Assembly: GCA_030324005.1 (NCBI GenBank)
Contig: JARDVH010000099.1
Location: 36,292,460 to 36,356,459, forward strand
DNA from: Negaprion brevirostris
Taxonomy: Eukaryota
Length of the DNA: 64,000 nucleotides
Reading direction: 5' to 3'
Position 1 is the first letter of the stretch. Every line of letters begins with the position of its first letter. This document shows positions 3,305 through 41,462 of the stretch, piece by piece. The notes beneath the pieces are model-generated. The model did no database searches. It was not told the DNA's origin and saw only the letters and a list, made by a program, of their open reading frames with translations. The position numbers were made by a program, and so were the translations under genes.

Positions 3305-3382
3305 ATGATTGAATTGCATCTCAGCCAAAACTGAGCAGGTACATATATATGCTAAGTTTTGGCAGAGATGCAATTCAATCAT
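3305..3382. repeat. Long inverted repeat/hairpin (33-bp arms, 2 mismatches, 12-nt loop)
   Basis: Left arm ATGATTGAATTGCATCTCAGCCAAAACTGAGCA, loop GGTACATATATA, right arm TGCTAAGTTTTGGCAGAGATGCAATTCAATCAT. Confidence 0.95.
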
Positions 3383-14317: not shown

Positions 14318-14513
14318 TTGAGTATTGTTGAAAAAAGAAATTGTAGCTTTTCATCTTGCATTCATCAGGACAGCTCACAAGAAATGATCAATTTATCTTA
14401 TTATTTGATTGTAATTTTTAAAAACAACTTAGGTTGGTAGTTTCTTGCAAGCAGTCCTGATGAGTGCAAGATGAAAAACTTTAACAGCATCTTAATTTTT
14501 CAGCAATACTTAA
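14318..14513. mobile_element. Fold-back element family 1, copy A (inverted arms of about 70 bp, each with a decayed hammerhead core)
   Basis: The reverse complement of the left arm (TTTCTTGTGAGCTGTCCTGATGAATGCAAGATGAAAAGCTACA...CAACAATACTCAA) aligns with the right arm (TTTCTTGCAAGCAGTCCTGATGAGTGCAAGATGAAAAACTTTAACA...CAGCAATACTTAA). The spacer is about 56 nt. Confidence 0.85.
14453..14486 (+). ncRNA. Degenerate minimal type I hammerhead ribozyme motif
   Basis: AGTC-CTGATGA-GT-GCAAG-AT-GAAA-AACT-TT-AACA. The CUGAUGA and GAAA boxes are intact but stems I and III are mutated. Confidence 0.65.
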
Positions 14514-15922: not shown

Positions 15923-16019
15923 AGGATTTATACAATACTTTGATTTTGTGTTATTCTTTATAATTGATTTGCAAAAGGTACAACAGTTTGGTAATTTGAA
16001 TTTGTACTGATTGTCTTGT

Positions 16020-16293
16020 TTAAGTATTGCTGAAAAAAGACACTGTCAAAAAAAAATTTTCTTGCACTCATCAGGACAATTTGCAAGAATACTAAATGTA
16101 AACAACAAACTTGGCAGTAACTCAGTCATCAGCTAAGTGGTGCATTCTCCATGGCAACACCTCTACCAACCAGCACTCTCTCTTTTCATGCAGTCTCAAC
16201 TGCTGTTCCCTTTATATTTGATATTCTTGCAAATTGTCATGATGAGTGCAATACAAAAAGCTTTGACATGTGTCTTTTTTCAGTAATACTCAA
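16020..16293. mobile_element. Fold-back element family 1, copy B
   Basis: The left arm TTAAGTATTGCTGAAAAAAGACACTGTCAAA...CTTGCACTCATCAGGACAATTTGCAAGAATA is the reverse complement of the right arm TATTCTTGCAAATTGTCATGATGAGTGCAATACAAAAAGCTTTGACATGTGTCTTTTTTCAGTAATACTCAA. The interior GGTGCATTCTCCATG is shared with copy C. Confidence 0.9.
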
Positions 16294-16694
16294 CCACTAT
16301 CTCTTCTATCAAATGACTAATTGTCTTATTCCTTTTAGTTCTGTCTGTTTATTCTTGGATGTGCAAGTGACCAAGGGGAAAATAGACTATTTTTAAAATA
16401 ATTGTGAATATAGGTTTGATTAATATAGATTAGATTTCCTCCTCATGTTGCTCCATTAGAAAACTGGTTACAACTTTATCTTCATGCCTACTGGTTACAA
16501 AATATGGCAGATGCCTTTGAAGCCTTCATGTGGACACCAGTTGAGAATCCTTGATCTAGGTGACCCATTGTAGTAGTTATAAAATTCTGTATTATTTTGG
16601 ATATTTGTTCTAGGACTGACTAGAGCTCAATGTTATGAATGGTTTGCAGCAATTATTGTGTTCTGCATTTTCTAGGTATTTTTCATATAGTGAA

Positions 16695-38315: not shown

Positions 38316-38465
38316 AGGATAATTTAGAATGTAAATGAAATTCATAGAGATTGTGATGAATTGGAATACATGATGTGGAGATGCCGGTGTTGGACTGGGG
38401 TAAACACAGTAAGAAGTCTCACAACACCAGGTTAAAGTCCAACAGGTTTATTTGGTAGTAAACAC

Positions 38466-38499
38466 CACTAGATTTCAGACGCTGTTCCTTCATCAGGTG
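38466..38499 (-). ncRNA. Degenerate minimal type I hammerhead ribozyme motif
   Basis: The reverse strand reads CAC-CTGATGA-A-GGAAC-AGC-GTCT-GAAA-TC-TA-GTG. The core boxes, stem I (CAC/GTG) and UA cleavage site are present. Stems II and III are mutated. Confidence 0.7.
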
Positions 38500-38724
38500 A
38501 GTGGAGAGTTCTGATCACAAACAGGGCATATAAAGGCACACACCGTTTACAGAATACTGATTAGAATGCAAGTCTTTACAGCTAACCTGCTATTCAAGTC
38601 TTAAAGATGCAGACAACGTGAGCGGAGAGTGAGTGGTTAAAGAGATGTGTGTTGGCTCCTGTCTGGAGACGATACACATCTCTTTAACCTATGCAAATGC
38701 TATCTCGACTCACATTATCCTGTA

Positions 38725-39050
38725 AGTTTCAATAAAACCGCCACTCATTCGTCGAAACTCCAACGAGTACAGATCCAGAGTCCTCAACCTTTCCATGTAC
38801 TACAAGCTTTTCATTCTTGTGAACCTCCATTCATCCCTTTCCAAGGCCAGCACATCCTTCTTTAGATATGGGGCCCAAAACTACTCCAATACTCTAAGTG
38901 TGGTCTCACCAGAGCCTCATAAAGCCACAGATACCCACCCTCTAACCAGTGAAAAAGTATCTTCTCAAATCCCCTCTAAGTCTCCTACTCCTGAGCTTAA
39001 ATGTGCCAGAACAGCTATTAGACTGCAGCTTTGTCGATGATCTCGGGAGT
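38725..39050 (-). mobile_element. CR1 fragments
   Basis: AGATATGGGGCCCAAAACTACTCCAATACTCTAAGTGTGGTCTCACCAG is the reverse complement of the LVRPHLEY...FWAPYL motif. A second piece reads FKLRSRRLRGDLRRYFFT. Confidence 0.85.
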
Positions 39051-39136
39051 ATCTGATGCTTTTCATTATATTTTTGATTTTGTTTTGCCTCTAAGTTATT
39101 AGGTAAGGGATATAAACTTTGTAAACAAAACAATTC

Positions 39137-39328
39137 TGATGAAGGAAGAGCGGTGGATGTGGTTTCCATGGACTTCAGCAAGGTGTTTGATAAAGTCCCC
39201 CATGCAAGACTTATTGAAAAGGCGAGAGGGCATGGGATCCAAGGGGCTGTTGCCTTGTGGATCCAGAACTGGCTTGCCTGCAGAAGGCAGAGAGTGGTTG
39301 TGGATGGGTCTTTTTCTGCATGGAGGTC
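39137..39328 (+). mobile_element. CR1 reverse transcriptase fragment
   Basis: DEGRAVDVVSMDFSKVFDKVPHARLIEKARGHGIQGAVALWIQNWLACRRQRVVVDGSFSAWR. Runs into a gap. Confidence 0.95.
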
Positions 39329-39616
39329 NNNNNNNNNNNNNNNNNNNNNNNNNNNNNNNNNNNNNNNNNNNNNNNNNNNNNNNNNNNNNNNNNNNNNNNN
39401 NNNNNNNNNNNNNNNNNNNNNNNNNNNNNNNNNNNNNNNNNNNNNNNNNNNNNNNNNNNNNNNNNNNNNNNNNNNNNNNNNNNNNNNNNNNNNNNNNNNN
39501 NNNNNNNNNNNNNNNNNNNNNNNNNNNNNNNNNNNNNNNNNNNNNNNNNNNNNNNNNNNNNNNNNNNNNNNNNNNNNNNNNNNNNNNNNNNNNNNNNNNN
39601 NNNNNNNNNNNNNNNN

Positions 39617-39847
39617 ATAAGCTAACCCCCTCATCTCCGGAATCAACCTGGTGAACCTTCTCTGCACTCCCTCCAAAGCCAATATATCCTTTCACAAATA
39701 AGGGGACCAAAATTGCACACAGTACTCTAGTTGCAGCCTCACCACTACCTTGTACAATTGCAGCAAGACCTCCCTGCTTTTATAATCCATCCGTCTCGCG
39801 ATAAAGGCCAACATTCCATTTGTCTTCTTGATCACCTGCTGCACCTG
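39617..39847 (-). mobile_element. CR1 ORF2 C-terminal fragment
   Basis: QVQQVIKKTNGMLAFIARRMDYKSREVLLQLYKVVVRLQLEYCVQFWSPYL and ALEGVQRRFTRLIPEMRGLAY. Confidence 0.95.
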
Positions 39848-39876
39848 ACAAAGGAACAGCGTTCCAAAAGCTAGTG
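39842..39876 (+). ncRNA. Degenerate minimal type I hammerhead ribozyme motif
   Basis: CAC-CTGACAA-A-GGAAC-AGC-GTTCC-AAAA-GC-TA-GTG. Stem II (GGAAC/GTTCC) is perfect and stem I is CAC/GTG. The two core changes are G>A after C, consistent with CpG decay. Confidence 0.65.
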
Positions 39877-41462
39877 GCATTTACTACCAAATAAACCTGT
39901 TGGACTTTAACCTGGTGTTGTGAGATGACTTAATGAATTGGAATATCCAGAGATCTCATTGCCTCAAAGTTCTTTGTAACTGCTGGCATATTTCTCTTGC
40001 TCTGATTCCTCACCCCTCCATGCTTCTGACCCCATCCATATCCCTCCACTCTACTGACTCACCCTTGGTGGTCCTGAGCCTCAGTGTAAACTGCCATTCT
40101 CCTGCTCTCCTTCACTATTCCACAGAATATACAAAGCTGACAGTTTTATAAATATACAAAGCTGACAGCTACACACCACCTTTAAATGACTGGGAACCAG
40201 CCATTATGACATTCTTATGAGTGTATGCCACTGATTATATCCTTGAGATGGGACATTATTGAAAATGGCTTCATGCTCACGGCATGCAAATATACTTGTT
40301 AAAAGTATGAATCCGCCACCATCCAGTATAATGCTCAACACTCTGCACACGTGCTGCTGACTTTATCTCTGCATCTCAGTTGCTGTTGGAAAATCATGAT
40401 TTAACATTCCACCTCATTAAATCACACCATGTTTCCTGCTCTTGCAGGTTCCATAAAAATACCCCCCTTCTCCCTGTGTCTGTCTTAGTTTATGCCTCAC
40501 AAAAAAGTGACCAATCATGCCTTGAATGTCCACTTTTTGTTAGGTTTGTTGATGTCCCATTGAAACTAACTGCCTTATGGATTCAATTGGCCTGCGTGGG
40601 ATTCGCAGCAGTCTTCAAAAGTTAAAATGTGAGAGTGATGTGAGGAAGTTGTTTTTGGGTTAGAGTGCATTTGGTAATAATACCTTTATTTCATGATAGA
40701 TAAATGACATTTTGAAATATGAGGGTCACTGTAATTAAAGGTCACTACAGCAGCCAACCTGCATTCGGCCAGGTCCCATATAAAATGGAGATAAATGGCC
40801 ACCTAGTCTTTTGACAAATAAATATGTTCTGGGCTTTGGCAGAACTCACTGCTCTTTTATGGTACTTTTGGATCTTTTGCAAGCAATTTTAATCTCCCAC
40901 TAGCAGGAGATTGGTGGGGTTGGGGTGAGTTTTGGGGGTGCGAAGGGGTGGTGTGTTAAATTAGTAAATATGTGAAACCTGACCACATTCCAACATGAAA
41001 GCGCCTGCTTCCAATTAATGGTGCCAGATTTTGGCAATTGGGATAACCTGTTCAGGAGAGGCAAGTCTGTAATTATAATATTTAAATGAATTTTGTTCCA
41101 CCAATGTTAGCAGCTATTTAAATTTAATGCAGCAAACATGGTAACTAAAGGGAACGGTGATGGGAAGAGGGGGACTGCCAACTCCAGCAGAAAAATGCTT
41201 ATGGGTCAACAGAATCAACATTGGTTGTTTCCCCAAGCCTTTCCAGCAAGTCTTCTTCCCTGATCTGCTGATCTCCCCAGATCTTTTGCTTGTTGTCACG
41301 ATCCCAACTGCGGTTTTCCACTGTTGGAGTTCCCTCCCTGCAACTGACTATGCTCTCAATCTAGCTGGCTCCTGAGAGAGAAGCTGTATTTAAAAACAAA
41401 AGGAGGCTGCAAGATGCTAAAAATCAGATCCGTGCAAATGGTTTGATATCTTTCCAGCATGT

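Follow-up and report, generated by a model that had tools for sequence, protein, structure and literature searches.

Two 5′-truncated ends of a Penelope-like element, head to head within one target-site duplication, in Negaprion brevirostris

The palindrome at positions 38369–39932 of the 64,000-nucleotide stretch of Negaprion brevirostris DNA analysed here (the window) is a single old, dead insertion of a Penelope-like element (PLE), in which two 5′-truncated ends lie head to head within a 13-bp target-site duplication. Head-to-head inverted pLTRs, junction palindromes, one-sided tails and opposed hammerheads have all been published earlier, and the locus is a decayed and ordinary repeat; its value is that of one among thousands of fossils of an unsettled step in transposition. 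Counts over the family make this open question of PLE mechanism testable, and the regularities found there, namely a single tail per pair, a bias in arm length, a 5′ hot spot and duplications of 8–15 bp, provide sharp predictions for the in vitro PLE system.

Results

Organization of the locus

The features of the locus are as follows, with arm coordinates mapped on a majority reference of the family built from 19 long copies (979 positions).

38356–38368, no strand: left copy of the 13-bp target-site duplication, ATGAATTGGAATA (sequence count: two in the window)
38369–38659, minus strand: left arm, a 5′-truncated pLTR of a PLE with tail, family positions ~688–980 (alignment)
38369–38409, minus strand: 41-bp tail, on the left arm only, with its end at the initial ATG of the ORF as known from full-length copies (alignment and contig loose ends)
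38447–38452, minus strand: AATAAA of the left arm
38466–38499, minus strand: minimal type I hammerhead, left copy, with core boxes kept and stem II and the base after GAAA damaged
38496–38504, minus strand: initiator-like site at the family 5′-truncation hot spot (positions 843–848), a predicted transcription start of putative function
38528–38534, minus strand: TATA-like motif ~29 nt upstream of the hot spot, of putative function
38657–38667, no strand: head-to-head junction at a native TCC...GGA micro-inverted repeat, with a 3-bp overlap, at the centre of the 38635–38689 hairpin
38657–38722, plus strand: right arm, first piece, family positions ~680–752
38723–38995 (end approximate), minus strand: decayed CR1-type LINE RT fragment (translation and repeat matches)
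39137–39328, plus strand: CR1-type LINE RT fragment
39329–39616, no strand: assembly gap of 288 N
39617–39847, minus strand: CR1-type LINE RT fragment, its final 6 bp common to the right-arm restart
39842–39876, plus strand: minimal hammerhead, right copy, with stems kept and both core boxes mutated
39842–39932, plus strand: right arm, second piece, tailless, family positions 849–939
39890–39895, plus strand: AATAAA of the right arm
39933–39945, no strand: right copy of the target-site duplication, a perfect match to the left copy

The original prediction had described a palindrome with two arms, and this is real: 38417–38499 and 39842–39925 form an inverted match of 84 bp that is 90% complementary, and 38635–38659 and 38665–38689 form a hairpin with 25-bp arms (88%). 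The limits proposed at the time, 38371–39926, identified the feature correctly but not its borders, and the flanking duplication was overlooked. The latter is perfect, lies outside both arms and occurs just twice in the whole 64-kb window, and both arms therefore belong to one insertion. They are unequal because only the left arm carries the tail, the borders of which coincide with pile-ups of loose ends of DNA contigs at 38369/70 and 38405–38408; the right arm extends 8 nt further in the 5′ direction. The left arm is 83–93% identical to its 39 best genomic copies, and the arms have diverged from each other by ~10%. Contigs from four DNA runs (three samples, three organisms) extend past the right border of the element into the same flanking sequence, so that the insertion is old and shared. 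No ORF was found at the locus itself, and no host gene was identified there.

As predicted, the right arm continues to about 38722 (measured end 38719–38724) and restarts at 39842. However, it is not merely interrupted: ~96 bp of it (family positions ~753–848) are absent and replaced by CR1 pieces, which came in after the PLE insertion. The 6 bp common to the last of these pieces and the arm restart suggest that the missing stretch was lost by microhomology. The expected CR1 debris in both orientations was located as minus-strand and plus-strand RT pieces around the gap; that these three LINE fragments are CR1 is our presumption, made from the RT motifs and not from a library match. A single 5′-inverted CR1 as the source of the 1.1-kb interruption is ruled out, given that the pieces flanking the gap face each other and contain the thumb region twice. 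Among the DNA-run contigs searched, none was found to cross the 288-N gap, and the contiguity of the arms thus rests on the 13-bp duplication; their junction sits in gap-free sequence.

Two splice-like sequences were observed in the left arm. On the plus strand, the antisense sequence of the 5′ hot spot (38493–38501) reads like a splice donor of consensus type (AG|GTGAGT) and could affect host genes where copies are intronic. On the minus strand, the tail at 38390–38415 contains a stretch of pyrimidines followed by CAG, ~20 nt ahead of the ATG, which resembles a splice acceptor and for which no matching donor was found.

Identity of the element family

The arm has 4,259 candidate relatives, and one 38-mer has 8,278 exact matches. 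We are highly confident that the family is an endonuclease-bearing PLE of sharks, present in very high copy number. Longer copies encode an RT with a DKG motif and, after a CX4CxxC linker, a nuclease of the GIY-YIG type that contains a CCHH motif. In the sister copy L064, the RT matches RVT_1 above the cut-off (E 7e-8), and the nuclease follows in the same frame after a stop. The GIY-YIG match in Pfam is weak (E 0.002, below the cut-off, in one of three nuclease-region sequences), with no domain returned by a Pfam search of the first nuclease sequence and no relative found in a search of solved structures. Several protein homologs carry PF01541; the best homologs are shark proteins with 79–89% identity, followed by turtle proteins with 42–47%. 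The CCHH motif as defined for endonuclease-bearing PLEs (PMC8557442) is recognizable as VVYLIRCRKGC...WY.GE followed by two histidines, with two cysteines between the GIY and YIG halves.

The organization is likewise that of a PLE. A copy of the 3′ repeat lies ahead of the ORF as well, in partial tandem, and the pLTR with its tail lies directly before the ATG in 10 of 30 loci picked by the 5′ end of the ORF. An optional tail of 30–40 bp on one end, accompanied by an inverted 5′-truncated copy, is a further mark of membership, and the shark family shows both. The Penelope identity proposed originally is thus borne out by the RT, the GIY-YIG nuclease and a pLTR that runs into the ATG of the ORF. 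The linker between RT and nuclease reads CHSNxCKxC, which fits the CX2-5CxxC pattern common to Neptune and Nematis and absent from Penelope/Poseidon (PMC8557442), and the family protein contains a GxxF motif. Judged by this linker rather than by a tree, the clade is probably Neptune.

The hammerhead motif

The family motif consists of a helix I of 3–4 bp, CUGANGA, one extra A, a helix II of 5 bp, GAAA, and a palindromic remnant of helix III. It fits the published minimal type I hammerhead, with self-cleavage as a prediction from sequence. Both core boxes expected of the consensus are present in the family, together with helices I and II and a non-G cleavage base in 74 of 78 copies (A 27, U 25, C 22, G 4). 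Each of the two locus copies has lost part of this motif, and the damage is complementary, as had been noticed before: in the left copy, CUGAUGA and GAAA survive, but stem II is broken and the base that follows GAAA is altered; in the right copy, stem II survives, but CpG-type substitutions have changed both core boxes. Damage in both is largely at CpG sites. In an alignment of 32 rows (30 picked for intact cores, plus the two arms of the locus), 90.9% of cells pair, compared to 27–46% for slid partners, in a test that leans toward the structure because the structure was read from the consensus; helix II contains 15 compensatory cells in the same rows.

The covariance-model scan that had been proposed for the hammerhead came back empty: the Rfam hammerhead models matched neither the window (searched to E 1) nor a well-preserved copy (searched to E 10). 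Single-strand folding of five copies revealed no unusual stability (z −1.3 to +0.13), with helices I and II in the best fold of two of the five. The hammerhead cleavage site is ruled out as the origin of the 5′ ends, which do not pile up near position 880. No role is indicated for the ribozymes at the locus, which point outward because each arm is a pLTR end. In genome annotation, the appropriate label for palindromes whose hammerheads face outward is that of PLE ends, rather than of new non-coding RNA genes. Elsewhere in the window, a hairpin at 3313–3374 weakly resembles an Rfam microRNA model (E 0.54, well short of the cut-off), probably by chance.

Inverted pairs across the family

The family was sampled through 90 anchors taken in positional order along one contig, covering 93 of 100 listed places of the 38-mer (three places were second matches in the same locus, and the last seven were left out). 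The fraction of inverted pairs, a measurement proposed with the original prediction, turned out to be high in one orientation only: for 41 of 78 copies, a head-to-head partner in inverted orientation lies no more than 50 bp away (12 anchors with a gap at the 5′ end being dropped), a figure that overstates the rate per insertion somewhat because pairs are reachable via either arm, whereas a tail-to-tail partner within 50 bp was found for none of 83 (7 dropped for a gap at the 3′ end). Four apparent singles (L132, L135, L078 and L102) have inverted pieces of 12–20 bp at the 5′ junction, and the true inverted share may therefore exceed 41/78. A same-strand neighbour at most 50 bp upstream is present for 3 of the 90 anchors; with such neighbours this rare, and with the arms of the locus inverted and damaged, a non-LTR retrozyme, which would have head-to-tail units with intact hammerheads, is rejected.

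The 3′ ends of the copies are bimodal, falling near 939–944 and 977–979, and pile-ups at these two ends recur in independent contigs from four DNA runs (three samples). Of the 33 pairs in which both outer ends could be resolved, 32 have exactly one tail and no pair has two, where "tailed" refers to a cut-off at position 957 that was chosen after inspection of the data and to which two arms lie close. By outer ends, these pairs comprise 30 long with short, two long with a more truncated end, one short with short and none long with long. The tailless arm reaches further 5′ in 19 pairs and the tailed arm in 5, with 8 ties (p 0.007). In 23 of 24 pairs, both arms belong to one subfamily, compared to a mean of 7 and a maximum of 16 after shuffling; the single mixed pair, L128, would mean two templates or later conversion. 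Identity between arms is 0.876 within pairs versus 0.874 for other same-subfamily pairs (20 pairs, p 0.6), so that this comparison gives no sign of a shared template, and private variants common to both arms of a pair were not detectable. Among the 67 loci that were resolved throughout, 26 are surrounded by duplications of 8–15 bp (18 of 33 pairs and 8 of 34 singles), compared to 0–1 in 20 shuffles.

At the other end, 31 of 78 anchor arms start at 843–848, whereas the neighbouring bins of 6 nt contain 1 and 7. The base preceding the hot spot, where a cap-derived G might appear, is G in 6 of 10 arms that start at 846 and mixed at neighbouring positions. Initiator-like and TATA-like motifs make 843–848 the predicted start of transcription. 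The 41 junctions comprise 13 overlaps of at least 2 bp, 7 near-blunt joints and 21 with extra bases, and their position differs between copies. The fold-back point, which the original prediction had left to be determined as fixed or variable, is therefore variable.

Some further arrangements were noted. Direct tail-to-tail joins in the assembly are very few (long-to-short 1, long-to-long 0, short-to-short 0), the single case being a unit nested at the end of one from another subfamily, and long-to-short is the leading class of tail-to-tail joints in the table of contig joints. L216:1234-1714 contains two nested head-to-head units from different subfamilies, the second having landed precisely at the short end of its predecessor. 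The nesting and the contig joints together indicate that the element's own end may be preferred as a cut site. Several separate units lie less than 3 kb apart in L120 (three units), L122, L108, L136 and L154, which suggests that insertions cluster locally.

A second hammerhead family

The window contains a second hammerhead family, near 16017–16296, that has no meaningful similarity to the family of the locus (best E 1.5). Two opposed arms are present in 10 of its 30 best-hit loci, all of them head to head; these loci are not a random sample and include the copy in the window. Exactly one tail is found in eight of the ten pairs and two tails in none. In the window copy (16017–16296 and 14438–14513), the right arm is tailed and the left tailless, and the tail of ~22 bp likewise ends near an ATG. 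The layout is thus common to two unrelated families, as claimed originally (41/78 copies in one, 10/30 best-hit loci in the other), and so reflects the insertion process. The broader claim of a general insertion intermediate of shark Penelope elements holds as far as the insertion process is concerned; novelty and restriction to sharks are not supported, since head-to-head inverted pLTRs are known from rotifer, fly and other PLEs and opposed minimal hammerheads from schistosomes.

Discussion

Origin of the paired arms

We lean towards an origin of the two arms by reverse transcription primed from both strands of a staggered cut. The GIY-YIG nuclease would cut the two strands ~13 bp apart. Copying of the RNA would begin from one free end at the tail end, beside the ATG, and from the other ~35–40 nt upstream, so that one arm would receive a tail and the other none. 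Both cDNAs would end prematurely, in many cases where transcription is predicted to start, immediately ahead of the hammerhead, and their ends would be linked through short inverted microhomology (3 bp at the locus), bluntly or with a few additional bases. Two-strand priming accounts in one step for the duplication and the outward-facing arms as well as for the one-tail rule and for joints that vary, and the single tail per pair, together with a tailless arm that reaches further 5′, argues for it and against plain fold-back. The 3-bp hairpin junction at the locus suits fold-back equally well. Evidence from an anole PLE in vitro is divided: both target strands are cut and extended, and two RNA start sites bound the tail, yet no difference in start site between the strands was observed, and the coupling of long to short is not seen (PMC11167929). 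A bolder version, which we put forward tentatively and would not bet on, is that PLE integration is an obligate two-primer reaction of one enzyme dimer with fixed start sites ~35–40 nt apart, hence one tail per unit. The leading tailless cDNA would usually run further, often to the capped 5′ end of the RNA, and the inverted pLTR, for so long unexplained, would be a normal product and not a self-priming accident. A literature search with few subscription papers within reach found no proposal of two-strand priming for PLE inversions.

The alternative that survives best, a serious one although we consider it less likely, is self-priming or snap-back, in which an end folds at a short inverted repeat and copies itself, and a nuclease then trims one tail. 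The folding end may belong to antisense RNA, as proposed in PMC3846280, or to new cDNA. The locus junction does lie on a native 3-bp inverted repeat, the best-supported contig joints cluster at another, and the agreement of subfamily in nearly all pairs is what self-copying would produce. In plain cDNA snap-back, the arm that is longer at the 5′ side is the template, and its copy cannot gain a tail that the template lacks. At the locus and in 19 of 24 untied pairs, it is the would-be copy that has the tail, which disfavours this plain form and means that snap-back needs an extra trimming step. Such a step has a precedent in PMC8557442, where the tail is ascribed to nuclease resolution of an intermediate. 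A hairpin primed on antisense RNA would also favour a tail on the 5′-shorter arm, as in those 19 pairs; however, five pairs run the opposite way, 21 of 41 junctions contain extra bases instead of a hairpin, and the pile-up of 5′ ends below a TATA-like motif would fit the start of a sense RNA better than the 3′ end of an antisense one.

That the palindrome itself functions or spreads as a unit, in the manner of a non-autonomous retrozyme-like element or a bidirectional ribozyme cassette, is very improbable. The ribozyme-like constraint on the family motif (cleavage base A, U or C in 74/78, covariation in stem II) speaks in its favour, as does the reported derivation of retrozymes from PLE pLTRs (bioRxiv 10.64898/2026.07.22.740005). 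Nevertheless, the junction varies among copies, so that palindromes are not propagated as one fixed block. The locus has two damaged ribozymes, in arms that have diverged and of which one is split by CR1, and no tandem array, and 5′ ends do not accumulate at the predicted cleavage site. Finally, chance juxtaposition of the arms by two independent insertions or a scaffolding error, which the unspanned 288-N gap, the abundance of the family and the nesting in L216 might invite, is scarcely credible given the perfect duplication around both arms, their gap-free junction and a one-tail pattern like that of 32 of 33 other pairs.

Comparison with known systems

In LINE-1 twin priming, both cut strands prime as well, inverted pieces end up within one target duplication, and the two pieces are different parts of the RNA. 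The shark pairs differ in that both arms repeat the same 3′ region.

Among PLEs, Pen2a_Av of Adineta vaga has an inverted 5′-truncated pLTR, a head-to-head junction palindrome and a one-sided tail, and rotifer PLEs have duplications of 8–10 bp around the unit and a TATA and an initiator-like motif in the pLTR (PMC3846280). Tails of 30–40 bp on one end, adjoining the ORF start, are described in PMC3846280 and PMC8557442, and the legend of Fig. 2 in the latter presents the scheme of inverted pLTR and tail as typical of PLEs in general. Inverted repeats are the most frequent form of D. virilis Penelope (PMC2377424), the promoter of which is internal and TATA-less, in contrast to the TATA-like motif predicted here. 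What sets the locus apart from the rotifer and fly insertions is its shark family, the absence of an ORF, the 13-bp duplication and the later interruption by CR1. Inverted ends have been explained by self-priming (PMC3846280) or nuclease resolution (PMC8557442); the accessible parts of these papers and of PMC2377424 contain no count of the one-tail rule or of the arm-length bias for complex insertions.

With the Neptune clade, which is widespread in vertebrates (bioRxiv 10.64898/2026.07.22.740005), the shark family shares the C-terminal GIY-YIG with CCHH, the CX4CxxC linker and the DKG and GxxF motifs. Schistosomes have opposed minimal hammerheads 100–700 bp apart, and the shark motif resembles the minimal hammerheads of metazoan PLEs in structure (a short helix I, an additional base ahead of helix II, G-C as the first pair and a palindromic remnant of helix III), in its place within the pLTR and in forming opposed pairs (PMC4209133). 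It differs from that type in its helix II of 5 bp and in matching no Rfam model, and is a predicted ribozyme. The anole element studied in vitro, Poseidon PAc, belongs to a different clade, and the part of that study available to us offers no explanation of inverted products (PMC11167929). Its ORF starts inside the hammerhead, whereas that of the shark family starts ~100 nt after it.
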